A DNA stretch of 41,646 bases, taken from Deltaproteobacteria bacterium (GTDB taxonomy: Bacteria > JAEEML01). Numbering within the stretch: the first letter of the stretch is position 1; each line of letters opens with the position of its first letter. The notes below the pieces were generated by a model, which saw nothing but the letters and a program-made list of their open reading frames with translations, was not told where the DNA came from and did not search any database. Location: assembly GCA_016283195.1 (NCBI GenBank), contig JAEEML010000018.1, forward strand, positions 1-41,646. Direction: 5' to 3'. A program made the position numbers and the translations under genes. This document shows positions 2,063 to 10,516 of the stretch, piece by piece.

Positions 2063-3190
2063 TTACTTCCTCAAAAATTCCATCAGCGCCTTTTTGTTCT
2101 CTATGGGCGTGGTTGTCGGCCGGCCCAGGTCCGGGCGGTTCCCTTTTTTGACCTTTATTTCCAAAAGGAGCGGGCCCTGGGTGTGGGCGACTTCTTCTAG
2201 CGCCGCGGCCAATGTTTCCCGGCTATCGGCACTAAAAGCGGCGCGGTAGCCCAGGGCGCGGGCCACCGCCGGGAGGTCGATTTTCAGCCCCACCGTGGGC
2301 TGGCCACCCACGGAATCATGGGCCCCGTTGTTGAAAATTACATGCACATAGCCGGCCGGCGCGTTTTGGGCCACAATAGCCATGGAGCCCAGGTGCATAA
2401 TGGCCGCGCCGTCGCCGTCGAAGCAAAAGACCCGGCGGTCGCCCTTATTAAGGGCGATGCCGAGCGCGATTTGTGAAGCGTGCCCCATAGAGCCCACAGT
2501 TAAAAAATCGCGCTCGTGGCCCGCGCCCGTTTGCACCCGGTATTCAAAGAGCTCACGGCTAATCATACCGGTGGTGGAGACAATTACATCCTTTTCACCG
2601 AGAGCGGCGGCCACCTGCTGAATAGCCTCTTCGCGGCTAAGAGTGAGGCCGTTTTCCTGCGCTTTTTGCAACTTATAGTCGCTAAAAGTGCCCTTCTCTA
2701 TAATGAGAGCATATACTTCGCCGCTCTCCTGCATATATTTAGCCGCCTTGGCAATTTGCCCTGCCGCCACCTCTTCTTCTTTGCTCAAAATGTCATAATT
2801 TATGCCCATGACATTCAAAAGGCCGCTCGTTATTTTGCCCTGCTTAATATGCTGCGGCTCATCGTGCACACCGGGGCGGCCGCGCCAGCCGATGAGGAGG
2901 AGGGCCGGAATATTATAGACTTCTTTATCGGTAAGCGAAGCTAGGGGGTTAATGATATTGCCCTCGCCAGAATTTTGCATATAAACAGCGCCGATTTTGC
3001 CGCTGGCGAGATGATAACCGGCGGCAATGGCCAAAGCCGCCCCTTCGTTAGCGGCTATAATATTGTGTTTTTCGTCAATATTATCGGCTATATAGGCGCA
3101 GATATTTTTGAGTAGCGAATCGGGCACACCGGCAAAAAAATCAATGCCGCATTTGGCCAGGGTAGTAACAAAAAACTTGGGGTCTAACAT
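2063..3190 (-). CDS. aepY: Phosphonopyruvate decarboxylase (TPP-dependent)
   Basis: GVPDSLLK, ANEG, YMQNSGEGN, DEPQH, VGSMGH, DGDGA...NNGAHDSVGGQPT. Directly follows the PEP mutase. Confidence 0.95.
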   Translation of the reverse strand: MLDPKFFVTTLAKCGIDFFAGVPDSLLKNICAYIADNIDEKHNIIAANEGAALAIAAGYHLASGKIGAVYMQNSGEGNIINPLASLTDKEVYNIPALLLIGWRGRPGVHDEPQHIKQGKITSGLLNVMGINYDILSKEEEVAAGQIAKAAKYMQESGEVYALIIEKGTFSDYKLQKAQENGLTLSREEAIQQVAAALGEKDVIVSTTGMISRELFEYRVQTGAGHERDFLTVGSMGHASQIALGIALNKGDRRVFCFDGDGAAIMHLGSMAIVAQNAPAGYVHVIFNNGAHDSVGGQPTVGLKIDLPAVARALGYRAAFSADSRETLAAALEEVAHTQGPLLLEIKVKKGNRPDLGRPTTTPIENKKALMEFLRK

Positions 3191-3192
3191 GA

Positions 3193-4500
3193 TTATTTTT
3201 TGGTTCCGGGAATGAGGTTTAAAATTTCCTTAATCGGCATACAGTATTCATTAGAAGCTTCCAGGCTGCGGCTATGAATGAGAATGGATTCGGCGCACTT
3301 TTTCATGGCCGGGTAAGCCGAGCGCAACATGTGGTTGGCATAAATCACAATATTGATACCCCAAGAAGCGAGCTCCTCTTCGGTAAACTGGTTATAAGTG
3401 GTGGGCACCGCCACAATGGGGGTATGGGCATCCTTCTCGCGGAAACGGCGGCAAAATTCCTTAATATCTTCGCCGCTTTTGTTTTTAGAGTGAATCATTA
3501 TGCCATCGCTACCGGCGGCCACATAGGCATGGCAGCGTTCCAGGGCGTCATCAACCGATTTTCCGGCAATCAGCGACTCACAGCGCGAAATAACCATAAA
3601 ATCATTGGTAACCTGAGCAGCTTTGCCGGCGCGTATTTTGGCCGCAAAGCCCTCAATGGTATCCTGCAGCTGCACGGCATCGGTGCCAAAAAGGGAATTT
3701 TGCTTGAGCCCCACCTTATCTTCAATGATAACGGCCGAAATGCCCAGGCGCTCCAAAGTGCGCACCGTAAAGCCGAAATGTTCCACCTTGCCGCCGGTGT
3801 CGCCATCAAAAATCACCGGTTTAGTGGTGACTTCCAAAGTGTCGTTGAGGTCGTGCAGGCGGGTTGTTAAATCCACCGCTTCGATATCCGGCTTGCCCTT
3901 ACTGGTGGAATCGGTGAGCGAAGAGGACCACATGCCGTCAAATTCGCGCACTGCGCCATTAATCTCCACGCTGGTATGCTCGGCAATGAGGCCGGTAAGG
4001 CCATTATGCGATTCCAAAATGCGCACAATGGGCTTAGCGGCAATCAGGCGGCGGAGAGCTTTTAAGCGCGCCTCCGGCGTGGTGCCCAAAGCGTCCATCT
4101 CTTTTTTGAGCCCGGTGGAAGTAATGCCCTTTGTATAGGGAATCTCAATCACCTCTCCCCCCTGGGCCGCCATCACCTTAAAAACCTCATCGCGAATATA
4201 TCTATCCGCGCCCTGACACCAGTCATCGCCGTGAATAATGTAATCGGGTTTATATCTTTTGAGGTTTTCTACATAGCTCCATTCGTCTTGCGGCACCACC
4301 CGGCTCACACCCTTAATATTCTCGATAACATTTTTGCGCTGCTCATAGTTCAGATAAGGCAGGCGCTTGTGGGTGGCAATGGCTTTATCGGTAAAAAGGC
4401 CGATCATTACTTCGCCGTATTTGGCGCCCTCATTAATGATATTGATGAGGCCGGGGTGCATGATGTCCCCAATCATTCCTAAATAAACTGTCTTGGCCAT
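3193..4500 (-). CDS. aepX: Phosphoenolpyruvate mutase with N-terminal cytidylyltransferase-like domain
   Basis: Diagnostic EDKxxxKxNS motif (EDKVGLKQNS), DGDTGG, YANH. The first ~130 aa are TagD-like (DIMHPG, HGDDW, IPYTKGITST). Confidence 0.95.
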   Translation of the reverse strand: MAKTVYLGMIGDIMHPGLINIINEGAKYGEVMIGLFTDKAIATHKRLPYLNYEQRKNVIENIKGVSRVVPQDEWSYVENLKRYKPDYIIHGDDWCQGADRYIRDEVFKVMAAQGGEVIEIPYTKGITSTGLKKEMDALGTTPEARLKALRRLIAAKPIVRILESHNGLTGLIAEHTSVEINGAVREFDGMWSSSLTDSTSKGKPDIEAVDLTTRLHDLNDTLEVTTKPVIFDGDTGGKVEHFGFTVRTLERLGISAVIIEDKVGLKQNSLFGTDAVQLQDTIEGFAAKIRAGKAAQVTNDFMVISRCESLIAGKSVDDALERCHAYVAAGSDGIMIHSKNKSGEDIKEFCRRFREKDAHTPIVAVPTTYNQFTEEELASWGINIVIYANHMLRSAYPAMKKCAESILIHSRSLEASNEYCMPIKEILNLIPGTKK

Positions 4501-4711
4501 AGAACCCTCTTCCTCCCGCGAGACTTATAATATAAAAGGCCTTAACTTGGCCACCAGATTTTCTTGGCCGGCCGGCGCTTATTCTTCTAAGCTGCCTTGA
4601 GGCCCGGAACTTCCATTTGCAAAGAATTCGTCAGGTATTATATAAGGGTGGCTCGCGGTTGTCCCTAAGGTGCCGGGACTAACGCTAAGGAAGTTAATTG
4701 GTTGATATTTC

Positions 4712-6187
4712 ATGGATAATAATTCTAGCCAGAACAATTCAGCTCTGCGTTCCAAAGCCTTTGGCGGCTTTTTCTGGCGTTTTTTGGAGCGCACCGGAGC
4801 AGAACTGGTTACCTTTGTTGTCTCCGTTATTCTAGCCCGCCTTTTGGATCCGGATTATTACGGCCTCGTGGCTATGGCCTCCGTTATTGTGGCCATTTTA
4901 AATGTTTTTGTGGATAGCGGTTTCGGTAATGCCCTAATTCAAAAGAAGAATGCCGATGAATTGGATTTTTCCACTGTCTTCTTCTTTAATATCGGCGCCT
5001 GCATCTGCATGTATTTATTGCTTTACTTTACCGCCCCGTATATGGCTTCTTTTTACAAAATGCCGGATTTAACTTATGTTATAAGGGTGCTTGGCTTAAT
5101 CCTGATTATCTCTGGCCTCAAAAATATCCAGCAAGCTTATGTTTCCCGCCACATGCTTTTTAAGCGCTTCTTTTTTGCCACTCTCGGCGGCACCCTCGGC
5201 GCGGCGGCTATAGGTATTTTCATGGCCTATAAAGGTTACGGCGTTTGGGCTTTAGTGGCGCAAACACTTTTTAATACCATCACCGATACCGTCATTTTAT
5301 GGTTCACCGTGCCTTGGCGCCCCAAGCTTATTTTTTCTTTTAATCGCTTAAAGGGGCTCTTTAATTACGGCTGGAAAATGCTGGCCTCGGCCATCATTGA
5401 TCGCGCTTACAATGAGCTGCGCACTCTCTGCATCGGCCGCCTCTATCAGCCGGCCGATTTAGCTTATTACCGCAAAGCCGGCTCTTTTCCAAAAATGATT
5501 GTCACCAACATCAATAGCGCCATAGCCAGCGTGCTTATGCCACTTTTATCGCAAAAGCAAGACGACACAGAGAGTGTGCGCAACATAACCAGCATGGCTA
5601 TAAAGACCACCACTTTTCTTATCATGCCGGCAATGATGGGCCTTGCTATCTGTGCAGAATCTTTTGTGCTTTTGCTCTTAACGGAAAAATGGCTGCCTTG
5701 TGTGCCCTTTATCCGCATTGCCTGCTTTACTTATGCCTTTTATCCTATCCACACCACTAATCTGGTAGCCATTCAGGCTCTGGGGCGCAGCGATATTTTT
5801 TTAAAGCTGGAAATATTCAAAAAAATATTTAATATCATTATATTAATTATCACCGTCAATTATGGCGTCTTGGCCATTGCCTACGGCGGTGTAGCCATTT
5901 CCATCGCCAATCAGCTCATCAACTCCTGGCCCAACAAAAAACTCTTAAATTATAGCTATTTGCAGCAACTAAATGATATGTTACCCCAAATAATTCTCTC
6001 CCTGGTAATGGGCGCTATAGTTTATCCTTTTACCTTTTTAAAGCTCTCCCCGCTCACTACTCTGCTAATCCAAATACCCTGCGGTATCTTCGTTTATTTT
6101 GCCATGGCCCATATTTTAAATTTAAAAACTTATAATTATTTCAAAAAAATAAGCCGCGAATTTATAGCCAAGAAGTTTAAAAAATGA
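4712..6187 (+). CDS. wzx: Wzx/WzxC-type polysaccharide flippase (MOP family)
   Basis: W..LER....FVVSVILARLL.P..YG, DSGFGNALIQKK; many hydrophobic helices; 491 aa. Confidence 0.9.
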   Translation: MDNNSSQNNSALRSKAFGGFFWRFLERTGAELVTFVVSVILARLLDPDYYGLVAMASVIVAILNVFVDSGFGNALIQKKNADELDFSTVFFFNIGACICMYLLLYFTAPYMASFYKMPDLTYVIRVLGLILIISGLKNIQQAYVSRHMLFKRFFFATLGGTLGAAAIGIFMAYKGYGVWALVAQTLFNTITDTVILWFTVPWRPKLIFSFNRLKGLFNYGWKMLASAIIDRAYNELRTLCIGRLYQPADLAYYRKAGSFPKMIVTNINSAIASVLMPLLSQKQDDTESVRNITSMAIKTTTFLIMPAMMGLAICAESFVLLLLTEKWLPCVPFIRIACFTYAFYPIHTTNLVAIQALGRSDIFLKLEIFKKIFNIIILIITVNYGVLAIAYGGVAISIANQLINSWPNKKLLNYSYLQQLNDMLPQIILSLVMGAIVYPFTFLKLSPLTTLLIQIPCGIFVYFAMAHILNLKTYNYFKKISREFIAKKFKK

Positions 6188-6215
6188 TTTTTATAGTAAG
6201 GCGCTGGAGATTGCC

Positions 6216-7232
6216 ATGATTAAGCCGCTTGTTTCAGTAAAGTGCATGACCTATAACCACGGCCCCTATATAGCTGAATGTCTCGATGGTTTTATGGCGC
6301 AAAAGACAAATTTCCCCTTTGAAGTGCTGGTGCACGACGATGCCTCAACCGATGACACTGCCGCCGTTATCCGCCGCTATGAAAAGAAATATCCCCAGAT
6401 AATAAAGCCGATTTACGAAAAGGAAAATCTCTATTCCAAAGAGGATGTCTCGGTACACACCGGCATAGATGCCCTTATTAGCGGCAAGTATTTGGCTATC
6501 TGCGAAGGCGACGACTATTGGTGCGACCCTTATAAATTGCAAAAACAGGTAGATTTTTTAGAGAGCCATCCGGATTATTCCCTGGTGCACAGCGCCAAAA
6601 AAGTTTATGTGCAAAAAAATCGGCGCTTCGCCATAAAACTTCCGGTCCATGTTCCTAAAGATGATGAATATTTTAACTATTTACTTACCGAGCGCAATTG
6701 TATTTCCACTCCCACGGTGATGATGCGCTCTGCTATGTATAAAGAGTACCGCCGGGTGATAAATCCGGCTGTCAAAGAGGGCTGGATTTTAGGCGATTTG
6801 CCCATGTGGCTCTATGCCGCAAGGAAAGGCAAAATTCACTTTATGCCGGAAAAAACGGCTGTTTATCGCCAGCTTACACATTCGGCCTCCCATTTTTCCT
6901 CCACGGAAAAATACTGGACTTTTGTGTGTTCGGTGCGCACAATCCGCGAATTTTTTGCCGAAAAATATGGCGTCGCTCTGCCCCCCTGGAATAAAGAACT
7001 GGCTTTTTATGAAGCCGCTTGCAACTCGCTGGGGAGTTCTTATTCCGAAGCCAACCGGGCAACCCTTTTAGCGGCCTTCCGCGCTTTAAAAAATGAGCAA
7101 AAAAAGCTTTCGCTCCTTATACCGCTTGCGGCCTCAGTGAGTAAAACAAGTTATAAATTCTGGTATTACGGCCGCTCGGCCCAAAAATTTTATAGCCGCA
7201 AGCTAAATTCGCTCTTTAAGGCCATTTTTTAA
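6216..7232 (+). CDS. Glycosyltransferase family 2
   Basis: PLVSV...TYNH, HDDASTD, CEGDDYW...KLQKQ. Confidence 0.9.
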   Translation: MIKPLVSVKCMTYNHGPYIAECLDGFMAQKTNFPFEVLVHDDASTDDTAAVIRRYEKKYPQIIKPIYEKENLYSKEDVSVHTGIDALISGKYLAICEGDDYWCDPYKLQKQVDFLESHPDYSLVHSAKKVYVQKNRRFAIKLPVHVPKDDEYFNYLLTERNCISTPTVMMRSAMYKEYRRVINPAVKEGWILGDLPMWLYAARKGKIHFMPEKTAVYRQLTHSASHFSSTEKYWTFVCSVRTIREFFAEKYGVALPPWNKELAFYEAACNSLGSSYSEANRATLLAAFRALKNEQKKLSLLIPLAASVSKTSYKFWYYGRSAQKFYSRKLNSLFKAIF

Positions 7233-7288
7233 CGCCCACTAAGTTCTCTTAAAAATAATTTCTAGCACTTTAGGAAAGGCCGGCGGGT

Positions 7289-7328
7289 AAAAAAAAGACC
7301 CGCAAGGCTGGGAGTTCCTCACGGGCCT
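7289..7328 (-). terminator. Rho-independent terminator
   Basis: Minus strand AGGCCCGUGAGG-AACUCCCAG-CCUUGCGGGUCU followed by a U-run. The 12-bp stem is complete only with G:U pairs on the minus strand, which fixes the orientation. Confidence 0.8.
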
Positions 7329-7419
7329 AAAACCAAAGCTGAGTCATCCTTGCTCAGCCATCGCAGAGAGAGCGGATTGCCAGGGGACGCCTTTCTTTTA
7401 ATGTTAAGCCCCGCTCCGC
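7289..7419 (-). ncRNA. Candidate sigma54-dependent small RNA (~130 nt, three stem-loops)
   Basis: Lies between a consensus -24/-12 promoter and an intrinsic terminator. Stems: GAGCGG/CCGCUC, GCUGAG-CAAGGAUG-A-CUCAGC, and the terminator hairpin. No credible ORF. The 5' end is estimated from promoter geometry. Confidence 0.65.
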
Positions 7420-7429
7420 TATTTTTTAA

Positions 7430-7445
7430 TGCAAGTAGCGTGCCA
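7430..7445 (-). promoter_or_regulatory. sigma54 (RpoN) -24/-12 promoter
   Basis: Minus strand TGGCAC-GCTAC-TTGCA matches the TGGCAC-N5-TTGCW consensus exactly; intergenic. Confidence 0.85.
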
Positions 7446-7460
7446 CAATGGCCATTTCAG

Positions 7461-7575
7461 CATCTTATTGATAATAAAAGAAAATAAGCGTTTTTGTGTT
7501 TGAAAAAAACAGCCCAAAATCCCTAAATTTCCGTAAAGTACGACAAATATGTCATAATGAAGTGACAGATATCAC
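7461..7575. promoter_or_regulatory. IHF-like site and candidate activator (UAS) palindromes upstream of the sigma54 promoter
   Basis: Minus-strand TATCAA-TAAG-ATG at 7461-7473 (one mismatch to WATCAANNNNTTR). Palindromes GACA-AATA-TGTC (7542-7553) and GTGA-CAGATA-TCAC (7562-7575) lie about 100-130 bp upstream of the promoter. Confidence 0.5.
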
Positions 7576-7593
7576 AAGCGGAGGGCGTAATTT

Positions 7594-10341
7594 TCACGAG
7601 CAACCGCTGGTGGTGCCGCAGTTAGGGCAGAGGTAGCAGCTACCGCTTCTTACGGTAATAGAGCCGCAATTTATGCAAGCCGGCGCATCTATCGCCGTTT
7701 CGTAAGTTTTTTCGCGCTTTAAGCCAGAGAAATTGGCCTCTTTGGGCGGCGTAAGAGCCGGTTTAATGGCCGCTTCGCCAGCGGCGATGGGCTGCAAAGT
7801 GCGGCTCTCCTCAGCCCCGGGCAATAAGAATTTTTGCTCCAGCCAGCGGAAGATATAATCGGTGATAGATTTGGCAATGGGCAATTTGGGATTGCCGGTA
7901 AAGCCCGAAGGCTCAAAACGGGAGTGGGAGAATTTATCAACCAGTACTTTAAGCGGCACGCCGTATTGCAAAGCCAGAGAAACAGAGGTGGCAAAGTTAT
8001 CCATCAGGCCGCTTATAGTGCTGCCCTCTTTGGATATAACTATAAAAAGCTCTCCCGGCTGGCCGTCTTCATACATGCCCACTGTGAGATAGCCCTCGTG
8101 GCCGCCTATGGAGAATTTATGGGTAATGGCCCGGCGCTCCGGCGGCAAGCGATGGCGGAAACCGTTTGGCGGTGTTTCGGCAGCCAAAAGTTCGGCCGGT
8201 TTTTCGGCCTGAGTTTGGGTGGAAGTGGCCTTTTGCTCCTCTTCTTTAACATTTTTGGTATTTAAAGGCTGCGTCCTTTTGGAGCCGTCGCGATAGAGAG
8301 CCACAGCTTTTAGGCCCAGTTTCCAGGCGGCCATATAAGTATCGGCAATATCTTTAACCGTAGCGCTGCTGGGCAAATTCACCGTTTTGGAAATAGCACC
8401 GGAAATAAAGGGCTGCACGGCGGCCATCATTTTTAAGTGGCCGAGCGGTGCAATAGAGCGCTGCCCTTTGGCCGGCTTTAAAGCACAATCAAAAACAGCC
8501 AAATCCTCATCTTTTAGGCCGGGTGCACCTTCAATGGTGTCACTCGCGCGCACATAAGCCAAAATTTCCTCTATAGTCTCCCGCTTATAACCAAGGTGGA
8601 GCAGTGCCGGTTCAATAGAGCTGTTACTCATTTTAAAGACACCGCCGCCTACCAGCTGTTTATATTTTACCAAGGCGATATCCGGCTCAATGCCGGTGGT
8701 GTCGCAATCCATCAAAAAGCCGATAGTGCCAGTAGGGGCCAGCAATGTCGTTTGGGCATTACGCACTCCATGACTTGCCGCCTCTTCCAATACTTTTTGC
8801 CAAACAGCATGACAAACTGGCAAAATTTCTTTGTTTTCCGCGGTTTCCTCAATTTGTTTTTGCCTTATGGCGTGCTTGGTGAGCACTTCCAGCATACTTA
8901 GGCGGTTTTCGTCATAAGCGGCAAAGGGCCCTTTTAAAGCGCTAAGACGCGCGCTCGTAAGATAGGCGGTGCCGGTAATAAGGGCGGTAACAGCGGCTGC
9001 CAGCTGCCTTGCTCTATCGGAGTCGTAAGGGAGGCCGAGAGTCATGAGATAGGCGCCCAAATTGGCATAGCCCAGGCCGAGCGGCCTAAATTTAATAGAA
9101 TTTTTGGTAATGCGCTCCGTGGGGTATGAGGCTTTATCCACCAAAATTTCCTGGGCAGTCAGGGTTATTTCCACGGCGTGCATCAGCCCTTTTATATCTA
9201 TCTGCCCCGCTTCATCGGTAAAACGCAGTAAATTCAAAGAGGCCAAATTACAGGCCGCATCATCCAGAAACATAAATTCACTGCAAGGATTACTGGCATT
9301 TATGCGCCCGCTGGCTTTACAAGTGTGCCACTCGTTGATGGCTGTATCAAATTGCAAACCGGGATCGCCGCAAATATAGGCAGCCTGCGCTATTTGCTCA
9401 AAAATACGGCGAGCCGAGACTTTCCGGGCAACCTTGCCGTCGGTAATGCGAATTAAAGGCCACTCGGCATCTTTTTCCACCGCTTGCATAAATTCATCGG
9501 TTACCCGCACCGAGTGATTGGCGTTTTGAAAGAAAACCGAGCGGTAAGCTTCACCGTTAAAAGAGCCGTCATAGCCCTCCTCAATCAGAGCCCAGGCCTT
9601 TTGCTCCTCGTGGGCTTTGGCATCGATAAACTCCTCAATATCGGGGTGGTCCACATTTAAAATCACCATTTTGGCCGCCCGCCTGGTTTTACCGCCGCTT
9701 TTAATAACACCGGCAAAGCTGTCAAAGCCGCGCATAAAAGAGACCGGCCCGGAAGCCGTACCGCCGCCGGAGAGAGTTTCGCAGGATGCGCGGATGGTGC
9801 TCATGTTGGTGCCGGTGCCGGAACCGTATTTAAAGAGTTTACCCTCGGTGACAGCCAGGTTTAAAATGCTATCAAGATTATCTTCCACCGAATTGATAAA
9901 ACAAGCGGAAATTTGCGGCTTTTCTTCCAAACCCAAATTAAACCAAACCGGGCTGTTAAAGGCCATGTACTGGTTTAAAAGGAGGTAGGCGAGCTCATCG
10001 TGAAAAGCGCTTTTCTCTTCCTCGTTTTGCAAATACCCCTGAGAAAGGCCCCAGGCGGCAATGGTATCCACAATACGGCTAACGAGTGTTTTTAAGCTGT
10101 CCTCGCGCTCCGCTGTACCCGGCTCACCGCGAAAATATTTGGAGGCGGCAATATTGGTGGCCATTTGCGACCAAAAAGAGGGCATTAAAATGTTATCCTG
10201 TTTAAAAACCGGCTTACCGTTATCGCCCATTATAACGGCGCTTCTCTCTTCCCATGTCACTTCGTCAAAGGGGTCCTGGCCGCTTTTGGTATAATAGCGC
10301 TCTACCCACCCCCGGTGTATGTTGTCTATCTCTGTACTCAT
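7594..10341 (-). CDS. nrdJ: Vitamin B12-dependent (class II) ribonucleotide reductase with C-terminal TSCPD-type domain and Zn ribbon
   Basis: FNSPVWFN, SACFI, GGKTRRAAKM, NPCSEF (thiyl Cys), APTGTI; C-terminus CINCG..CYLCPNCG..SGCS. Start placed at ATG 10341 (AAGGA RBS) rather than GTG 10383. Confidence 0.95.
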   Translation of the reverse strand: MSTEIDNIHRGWVERYYTKSGQDPFDEVTWEERSAVIMGDNGKPVFKQDNILMPSFWSQMATNIAASKYFRGEPGTAEREDSLKTLVSRIVDTIAAWGLSQGYLQNEEEKSAFHDELAYLLLNQYMAFNSPVWFNLGLEEKPQISACFINSVEDNLDSILNLAVTEGKLFKYGSGTGTNMSTIRASCETLSGGGTASGPVSFMRGFDSFAGVIKSGGKTRRAAKMVILNVDHPDIEEFIDAKAHEEQKAWALIEEGYDGSFNGEAYRSVFFQNANHSVRVTDEFMQAVEKDAEWPLIRITDGKVARKVSARRIFEQIAQAAYICGDPGLQFDTAINEWHTCKASGRINASNPCSEFMFLDDAACNLASLNLLRFTDEAGQIDIKGLMHAVEITLTAQEILVDKASYPTERITKNSIKFRPLGLGYANLGAYLMTLGLPYDSDRARQLAAAVTALITGTAYLTSARLSALKGPFAAYDENRLSMLEVLTKHAIRQKQIEETAENKEILPVCHAVWQKVLEEAASHGVRNAQTTLLAPTGTIGFLMDCDTTGIEPDIALVKYKQLVGGGVFKMSNSSIEPALLHLGYKRETIEEILAYVRASDTIEGAPGLKDEDLAVFDCALKPAKGQRSIAPLGHLKMMAAVQPFISGAISKTVNLPSSATVKDIADTYMAAWKLGLKAVALYRDGSKRTQPLNTKNVKEEEQKATSTQTQAEKPAELLAAETPPNGFRHRLPPERRAITHKFSIGGHEGYLTVGMYEDGQPGELFIVISKEGSTISGLMDNFATSVSLALQYGVPLKVLVDKFSHSRFEPSGFTGNPKLPIAKSITDYIFRWLEQKFLLPGAEESRTLQPIAAGEAAIKPALTPPKEANFSGLKREKTYETAIDAPACINCGSITVRSGSCYLCPNCGTTSGCS

Positions 10342-10516
10342 GATATTCCTTAATATAGTAAAGGCAGGGTAATTTGTCTCCACCTGCTGAATGCGCCCTT
10401 ATTCTTGACAAAAAAAACAGCCTGGCAAGAGCGAAAATATTGAATAAATTCGCATTGATGAACTCTTCGCTCAGAAAGCCGTCAATTTTAAAGGTAATTT
10501 TTTTAACTCTGCTTTA

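Follow-up and report, generated by a model that had tools for sequence, protein, structure and literature searches.

A predicted sigma-54-dependent small RNA gene of a new family between nrdJ and a GT2 gene in a Deltaproteobacteria bacterium genome

Introduction

Contig JAEEML010000018.1 of assembly GCA_016283195.1, from Deltaproteobacteria bacterium (GTDB lineage Bacteria; JAEEML01), was analysed over positions 1–41,646, a stretch of 41,646 nt referred to here as the window. Between nrdJ (7594–10383, minus strand) and a GT2 gene (6216–7232, plus strand), both assigned by Pfam, the minus strand carries an exact sigma-54 promoter. nrdJ is its upstream neighbour and the GT2 gene is convergent to it. 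As noted in an original prediction made from the DNA letters, no gene stands on that strand for the promoter to serve, the nearest further minus-strand open reading frame (ORF) of at least 100 amino acids (aa) in the ORF list of the window beginning 2.9 kb off. The question is what this promoter transcribes.

The original prediction proposed that the orphan sigma-54 unit is a new small RNA (sRNA) gene of three hairpins with an architecture like that of Pxr. Sigma-54-dependent sRNAs are an established class, represented by a handful of model Proteobacteria and myxobacteria. To our knowledge, almost nothing is known of riboregulation in uncultured gut lineages lacking all three classical RNA chaperones. 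The analysis presented here points to a real, conserved and very probably sigma-54-dependent sRNA gene of a new family (probability about 0.7 for this reading). It is carried by a near-invariant unit, promoter boxes kept around a variable spacer, an upstream palindrome with an IHF-like block, and the lack of a corresponding Rfam family.

The promoter and the sigma-54 machinery of the host

The predicted TGGCAC-N5-TTGCA motif is present once in the window (Table 1) against an expectation of 0.04, and the exact 11-base pattern appears in 4 of 100 shuffles. The 3.22-Mb genome carries it 15 times, with about 1.5 expected by arithmetic from base composition. The shorter pattern TGGCAC-N5-TTGC has 27 genomic sites, many of them directly upstream of genes, and thus the consensus marks real promoters in this host. 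Genes behind these sites include a PilA-type pilin, rtcB and several PDDEXK_2 nuclease copies (Pfam). The classical sigma-54 targets pilA, rtcB and lpxC are all preceded by a sigma-54 consensus, the lpxC site having two mismatches.

The host is an uncultured gut bacterium, whose assembly consists of 190 contigs (47.8% G+C) with completeness scored at 100% and contamination at 4.2%. A Pfam search of the genome shows one Sigma54_DBD gene (rpoN) and seven full enhancer-binding proteins with Sigma54_activat scores above 208 bits; five other Sigma54_activat rows are weak AAA matches and are excluded from the activator count.

Conservation of the unit

A metagenome scan yields one relative, L103, a 2,662-nt contig that encodes the C-terminal 353 residues of NrdJ with 84% protein identity. 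The same promoter-to-terminator unit is found downstream of the L103 nrdJ. Counted from the base before the predicted start through the U-run, L103 and the window agree in 131 of 134 alignment columns; in the adjacent nrdJ DNA (last 1,056 nt) the identity is 80.6% (858/1064 columns). Three columns differ: the −1/+1 base (A/G), a single base past the U-run, and G7320, which is A in L103. The last is the sole change in the RNA body and converts the terminator pair 7320-7304 from G.U to A-U. Past the terminator, L103 and window DNA show no meaningful alignment, and the spacer between nrdJ and the promoter is far less conserved save for three blocks. The conserved block spans promoter to U-run, as would a transcription unit.

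Two Logan contigs show the same unit. X3 covers 7077–7616 with 23 differing positions and one gap, none of which falls in 7285–7435 (p ~7e-4 by arithmetic if differences fell evenly). X1 has the L103-type promoter but retains G at 7320. A nearly invariant unit amid flanking DNA that is about 20% diverged is, to judge from these comparisons, functional DNA.

The promoter itself shows a particular pattern of change. The five-base spacer reads GCTAC in the window, GCCGC in X3 and GACTT in L103 and X1, with both boxes unchanged. Boxes and spacer length kept, with the spacer letters free, is the pattern predicted for a used −24/−12 promoter, and neither an RNA element nor a coding frame would readily account for it.

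The sRNA is single copy in the host genome by BLAST and by a covariance model, the latter finding only the sequence itself. The homologue search had a wide scope, in which all 40 listed relatives share no rank below the domain with the host, which is alone in its phylum group. Close relatives are not represented in the species collection (185,579 genomes), because the closest nrdJ among the best 80 of 142 matches kept are only about 45–64% identical. No sRNA homologue is found in the 40 listed relatives, five named metagenome-assembled genomes (MAGs), 208 Fibrobacterota, viral contigs or plasmids. In 401 sampled Myxococcota genomes there are six short matches (19–33 nt, E 0.002–0.009) at chance level and the sRNA is not found; 401 Bdellovibrionota genomes give one 24-nt match to the promoter only. 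A covariance model run over 100 of 139 nrdJ loci gives L103 as the only real match. Sigma-54 sites lie near 9 of the 139 loci, and the sRNA unit is found in L103 only.

One other locus gives a match at chance level. At L048:6698-6791 (plus strand), right where nrdJ of an uncultured Fibrobacteraceae MAG ends, the sRNA model scores 13 bits (E 0.97), and no sigma-54 site is present.

Upstream control region and related promoters

The three conserved blocks upstream of the promoter are a palindrome, an AT-rich block and a block that is CRP/FNR-like in form (Table 1). The palindrome GACATATTTGTC is kept in L103 as GACATTTTTGTC and is unchanged in X3. The IHF-like core of the AT-rich block has one mismatch to what we take to be the IHF consensus. 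The CRP/FNR-like form TGTGA-N6-TCAC is not enriched in the genome, where 16 sites are found, about the chance number by arithmetic.

There are 13 perfect genome copies of GACA-W4-TGTC. The perfect palindrome is situated 78–122 nt 5′ of five of the 78 near-consensus sigma-54 promoters (at most one mismatch), the sRNA promoter included, and one-mismatch palindromes occur at that spacing in none of the 78. lpxC is a sixth case, with a two-mismatch promoter, TGGTAT-N5-TTGCA, and the palindrome 156 nt away; the chance of such a promoter near a random site is ~0.007 (arithmetic). The genes behind the six promoters are listed in Table 1. The palindrome is a putative upstream activating sequence (UAS), at which an activator may bind. 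The chances that the sRNA belongs to an envelope regulon are about even.

The 11-kb contig C174 carries, besides lpxC, a PP2C phosphatase, a hybrid histidine kinase and an NtrC-type activator with REC-AAA-HTH organization. That activator, at C174:8266-9663, is a weak candidate for the palindrome-binding protein, and naming it is a guess.

The palindrome also occurs in pairs, 92–104 bp apart, at C28:8271/8363 and C167:20959/21063. Both pairs are beside lipoprotein genes with no sigma-54 promoter nearby. The lipoprotein at C167 is of the Fib_succ_major family (Pfam) and that at C28 is of no family. At both loci the 5′ untranslated regions (UTRs) have in common a GTCGC...GCGAC hairpin immediately ahead of the ribosome site.

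Table 1. Features of the sRNA locus, positions in the window, and genes behind palindrome-associated sigma-54 promoters, by contig
Feature	Position	Strand	Remarks
Sigma-54 promoter	7430–7445	−	TGGCAC-GCTAC-TTGCA, exact consensus, boxes invariant between lineages; −24 box TGGCAC 7445–7440 (GG 7444–7443), −12 box TTGCA 7434–7430 (GC 7432–7431)
Predicted sRNA transcript	7289–7420	−	~131 nt, +1 at ~7420/7419 to U-run end
Stem-loop 1 (SL1), predicted	7371–7420	−	AGCGGAG/UCCGCU (5′ end) and GGGGC/GUCCCC around accessible A-rich loop; minimum-free-energy fold, unpaired probabilities
Stem-loop 2 (SL2), predicted	7338–7358	−	6-bp stem GCUGAG/CUCAGC, loop CAAGGAUGA; identical in L103
Intrinsic terminator	7289–7328	−	12-bp stem 7328–7296 with three G.U pairs, loop AACUCCCAG, then U8 7296–7289
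Candidate seed AGGCGUCCCCUGGCAAUC	7375–7392	−	sRNA nt 29–46; 18-nt perfect complement of C23:5661-5678
AT-rich block TTTATTATCAATAAGAT	7462–7478	−	IHF-like core TATCAA-N4-AT[G/A]; centre ~−49; kept in L103 (alignment columns 163–179)
Palindrome, putative activator site (UAS)	7542–7553		GACA-W4-TGTC; centre ~−128 from predicted start
TGTGA-N6-TCAC block, CRP/FNR-like in form	7562–7576	−	16 nt past nrdJ stop; kept in L103 (alignment columns 65–79)
Palindrome and sigma-54 promoter	C149		nrdJ-linked sRNA
Palindrome and sigma-54 promoter	C136		Fib_succ_major lipoprotein
Palindrome and sigma-54 promoter	C69		240-aa lipoprotein without family
Palindrome and sigma-54 promoter	C151		Secreted protein, cut by contig end
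Palindrome and sigma-54 promoter	C68		44-residue membrane peptide
Palindrome and sigma-54-type promoter	C174		LpxC (Pfam 347 bits; L157:3384-4391, minus strand)

Predicted transcript and its terminator

After the −12 box the minus strand reads TTAAAAAAT, followed by the predicted +1. The three hairpins of the original prediction are all present on this strand, the third being the G:U-stabilized terminator with a U-run that had been described. The terminator has a free energy of −18.9 kcal/mol (z −3.87), and 1 of 200 shuffles is equally good. It alone folds better than chance; SL1 and SL2 are predicted structure, no better than shuffled sequences and with no covariation. The promoter-plus-hairpin unit is carried by L103, X3 and X1, too few lineages for covariation.

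Neither in the window nor in L103 is there another convincing terminator in the stretch from the nrdJ stop (7594) to the sRNA promoter, and so the sRNA terminator probably ends the nrdJ mRNA as well. This bears on a different explanation of the locus, in which the block is merely the nrdJ 3′ UTR with its terminator, the sigma-54 match is fortuitous, and the sequence is conserved for a cis role in 3′-end formation or stability of the nrdJ mRNA. Transcripts of nrdJ probably reach the hairpin in either lineage, and linkage to nrdJ is the only synteny retained. About 40 nt would suffice for a terminator, whereas the invariant stretch measures 130 nt, and the −24/−12 boxes are exact while the 5 nt between them vary three ways. 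Moreover the upstream palindrome is common to other sigma-54 promoters, and the remaining 3′ UTR, from stop codon to promoter, is far less conserved. Of the possibility, raised with the original prediction, that the hairpin is solely the nrdJ terminator, the shared use probably stands and the exclusive use does not agree with the invariant 130 nt and exactly kept boxes. An explanation by the 3′ UTR is improbable.

An sRNA gene could also yield an RNA that binds a protein instead of pairing, for example a sponge displaying the SL2 loop. The loop CAAGGAUGA contains a GGA in a Shine-Dalgarno (SD)-like context that is fully exposed by the fold and the unpaired probabilities, and presumably resembles a CsrA site. 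The whole RNA is invariant, not just the seed, as expected if many surfaces matter. However, no CsrA, Hfq or ProQ family match is found in the host genome, and the CsrA-like loop is therefore left with no partner; the idea of a CsrA sponge of the CsrB/RsmZ type was dropped on finding no CsrA match. Known sponges carry many GGA loops; here SL2 has the only clean one, a further GGA being at the terminator stem-loop junction, and the gene is single copy. A protein-binding role has a similarly small chance of being correct.

Downstream genes and coding potential

Beyond the GT2 gene, flippase and phosphonate (phosphoenolpyruvate (PEP) mutase) genes are found in the window (Pfam). Positions 2063–7232 form a surface-glycan cluster with a PEP mutase-cytidylyltransferase fusion, a thiamine pyrophosphate (TPP) decarboxylase, a flippase and the GT2 gene. 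The content of this cluster differs between the window and L103, and the boundary of the variable locus is immediately after the sRNA terminator.

The position beside a variable glycan gene cluster would fit a cis-acting leader or attenuator, where the sigma-54 promoter would drive downstream surface-polysaccharide genes through a regulated terminator. In L103 a co-directional GT2 gene does lie about 120 nt past the terminator. Read-through in the window would run antisense to the convergent genes that follow. The two downstream GT2 proteins are 24% identical and not orthologous. The terminator, with its U8, is strong, and the predicted folds of the RNA show no evident anti-terminator alternative. 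Because the downstream genes differ between lineages, the RNA is the only product common to both promoters. We hold a leader to be quite unlikely.

There is no conserved ORF between promoter and terminator. Sense-strand ORFs within the sRNA have 5–6 codons without an SD sequence, the 5-codon one being the MAEQG frame (ATGGCTGAGCAAGGATGA) that had been noted as the only ORF, and a 78-aa sense ORF of L103 is missing from the window. A small protein is very unlikely, since the 73-codon antisense frame, though open across the block in both window and L103 and ending at the same stop, lacks a start and a ribosome-binding site that are conserved (TTG 7350 comes first in the window, and in L103 a TTG outside the conserved block), and 8 of its last 22 residues, past the promoter, differ while the middle is 100% identical at every codon position, which is not a coding pattern.

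Relationship to known small RNAs

Rfam gives no family at gathering level anywhere in the window. A permissive scan of 7150–7650 lists ten weak rows up to E 10, none of them Pxr, Qrr or GlmY/Z, and the best is anti-hemB with 18.1 bits against a gathering score of 49.5. Rfam 15 presumably contains the Pxr model, and RF00128 and RF00083 we take to be GlmY and GlmZ. The novelty claimed in the original prediction therefore holds at the level of Rfam families.

GlmY and GlmZ of the Enterobacteriaceae have a stand-alone sigma-54 promoter, an IHF site, activator sites built of TGTC/GACA half-sites, and a tie to envelope precursor synthesis. The nrdJ-linked sRNA is similar in being a stand-alone gene, in its promoter architecture with an IHF-like block, in the TGTC/GACA half-sites, and in the possible envelope tie. 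It differs in that the half-sites are arranged as GACA-N4-TGTC, with one site and not three, and in showing no Rfam match, no glrK/glrR-like neighbour, and no Hfq or known adaptor protein. Qrr of Vibrio is an RpoN-dependent sRNA that acts as the non-coding arm of an activator regulon. It depends on Hfq, has a conserved 32-nt core and is usually encoded in several copies, whereas the sRNA here is single copy, and no Hfq is found in the host.

NrsZ of Pseudomonas and GlnZ of Enterobacteriaceae are described as RpoN-dependent sRNAs that form the non-coding arm of an activator regulon (PMC9731577). There is no match to the Qrr, NrsZ or GlnZ families of Rfam. Unlike GlnZ, which is cut from an mRNA 3′ UTR, the nrdJ-linked sRNA has its own promoter.

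Pxr of Myxococcus xanthus and relatives has a sigma-54 promoter and three predicted hairpins (PMC5568312). The sRNA is like Pxr in its sigma-54 promoter, its size and its three predicted hairpins, a generic likeness only; neither sequence nor structure matches, and Rfam shows no Pxr row up to E 10. In addition, pxr always adjoins the activator gene nla19, lying between nla19 and an NADH dehydrogenase gene, and the sRNA lies between nrdJ and GT2. Thus the Pxr-like architecture proposed originally survives as a general plan, with neither sequence nor synteny in common.

In Desulfovibrio vulgaris Hildenborough, the sigma-54 regulome includes four noncoding RNAs (ncRNAs), with control of envelope-stress genes and an ncRNA by DVU1419, and of lpxC from a sigma-54 promoter by DVU2934 (PMC4641369, PMC3333781). 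This is a precedent for the host, where one palindrome links the sRNA, lpxC and lipoprotein genes, and the host lpxC promoter with its palindrome and a contig-mate NtrC-type activator gene recalls DVU2934-lpxC regulation. The organism is another one, and most of its ncRNAs adjoin their activator gene.

Phrase searches of an open-access collection for sigma-54/RpoN-dependent sRNAs and for Pxr gave no sRNA adjoining nrdJ. The locus shows what is found at stand-alone sigma-54 sRNA genes: promoter spacing, an rpoN gene with activators, a putative UAS at ~80–150 bp, and no protein-coding gene inside. By these comparisons the sRNA appears to be of no known family and a further case of a known regulator class.

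Candidate target and mode of action

Ungapped pairing of the sRNA was scanned against 3,185 predicted start regions (−70 to +30) of the host genome. The top site, with a score of 48 against 37.5 for the next, is the 18-nt complement of the candidate seed (Table 1), which lies at −33 to −16 of an ORF on contig C23 that has a GAGGTG ribosome site. The 18-mer match has a BLAST E-value of 0.042 genome-wide, and its chance falls to ~5e-4 if limited to start regions (arithmetic). A second, collinear 8-nt block, UCUGCGAU (7367–7360), pairs with AUCGCAGA further upstream in the same 5′ UTR. The C23 ORF is cut by the contig end after 169 codons, and neither Pfam nor NCBIfam assigns it to a family; it presumably resembles the N-terminal part of a Fic-domain protein. 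The seed is partly accessible, with an unpaired probability of 0.4–0.8 over nt 29–39. Full-length duplex folding on three targets yields unrealistically long duplexes. The C23 Fic-like 5′ UTR is a statistically unusual candidate target, and its status as a true target is tentative and somewhat doubtful.

Shorter matches of the seed core precede a DUF2147 gene and a Lon gene. Three of the six other genome copies of the 10-mer TTGCCAGGGG are found 22–45 nt before predicted starts, the 10-mer being picked post hoc and one ORF being doubtful. The copies before DUF2147 and Lon are suggestive only as further targets.

In the proposed mechanism, an enhancer-dependent sigma-54 promoter would start minus-strand transcription at ~7420/7419, and the intrinsic terminator 7328–7289, probably used by the upstream nrdJ mRNA too, would stop it. 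An NtrC-family activator would bind GACA-W4-TGTC at about −128, and DNA bending at the IHF-like block near −49 would assist activation. The same palindrome would serve the sigma-54 promoters of two lipoproteins, a secreted protein, the 44-residue membrane peptide and lpxC, and the sRNA would be the non-coding arm of a cell-envelope regulon. With no CsrA, Hfq or ProQ match in the genome, any base pairing would be chaperone-independent. Base-pairing of the sRNA with mRNAs in this manner is the weakest step of the mechanism. Pairing at the C23 Fic-like 5′ UTR (18 + 8 pairs) may lower translation or stability.

LpxC catalyses the committed step of lipid A synthesis. In its most extended form the proposal is that the sRNA is an arm of an undescribed sigma-54 envelope regulon (operator GACA-W4-TGTC; lpxC, Fib_succ_major-type lipoproteins, membrane peptide) in a deep-branching, uncultured gut lineage, and that it silences a Fic-family gene by the exceptionally long 18+8-nt duplex, and possibly Lon and DUF2147 via the UCCCCUGGCA core. 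Taken as a whole this is unlikely, and if true it would couple the remodelling of the outer membrane with the control of a protein-modifying enzyme. The locus is a concrete testable case, with promoter, probable operator, co-regulated envelope genes and a candidate target defined from sequence. Confirmation would extend the idea of a non-coding arm for each envelope regulon to a new lineage and a new sigma factor/activator pair, with no principle changed.

Points that weigh against an sRNA gene

Several observations weigh against reading the locus as a sigma-54-dependent sRNA gene with the regulon and target given above. There is no transcript support, no RNA dataset being listed for 6200–10400; of two metatranscriptome contigs, X10 aligns over 38 nt only, inside nrdJ, and X6 aligns nowhere. 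As a whole the RNA folds no better than shuffled sequences (z −0.77, 44/200 shuffles as good), nor do SL1 (z −0.29) and SL2 (z −1.16). Only two or three close lineages carry the unit, hence there is no covariation for SL1 and SL2, and the near-total invariance could in principle stem from recent exchange of a short DNA block.

The regulatory side shows similar weaknesses. No sigma-54 promoter is near seven of the 13 palindromes, and the binding protein may therefore act elsewhere too, or be no sigma-54 activator. The genes pxr, qrr1, glmY and nrsZ adjoin an activator gene and the nrdJ-linked sRNA does not, none of the seven host activator genes being on the sRNA contig. NCBIfam gives none of the seven an equivalog-level name, and the palindrome cannot be attributed to any of them. 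For a trans-acting sRNA a perfect match of 18 nt is out of the ordinary, and the target is drawn from a single genome, in which the contig breaks off within the target gene.

Other observations

The affiliation of the host was also considered. An RpoB fragment aligns full length, with 59–64% identity, to three Myxococcota MAGs and one Bacteriovoracaceae MAG, the Myxococcota values being 60–64%. It aligns in two pieces, with 48–55% identity, to MAGs of Fibrobacteres, Verrucomicrobia, Planctomycetaceae, Omnitrophota, Krumholzibacteria and Raymondbacteria, and in several short pieces to an Armatimonadota MAG; one Acidobacteria MAG gives no match. The Atlas places RpoN in Myxococcota or Pseudomonadota. 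The host lineage may be deep and delta-like, perhaps distantly myxobacteria-like, its placement being uncertain.

Other sigma-54 promoters of the genome show features of their own. Near-identical promoters, TTTGGCACGC[G/A]ATTTGCAT, are found about 45 nt 5′ of several PDDEXK_2 gene copies, at C27:32486-32500 (minus strand) and C82:46706-46720 (plus strand), and in contig-end fragments at C19:4738, C72:5906 and C88:28161. PDDEXK_2 is a PD-(D/E)XK "transposase", Rpn/YhgA-like, and for a multi-copy nuclease family of this kind control by sigma-54 is uncommon.

rtcB (C182:12124-13428, minus strand) has an exact sigma-54 promoter at C182:13737-13751 (minus strand), followed by a leader of about 300 nt. 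The leader carries a 14-bp inverted repeat, GGAGTCCAAGGTTG...CAACCTTGGACTCC, and has no Rfam match. It is possibly a structured RNA of the rtc operon, perhaps Y-RNA-like.

At C68:38822-38836 (plus strand) and C19:294-308 (minus strand), one and the same sigma-54 promoter runs directly into an (AG)n tract ahead of a lipoprotein gene, the tract differing greatly in length between the two copies, with about 13 and about 4 units respectively. The tract may form a slippage-prone 5′ UTR. It is complementary to the sRNA linker CUCUCUCU.

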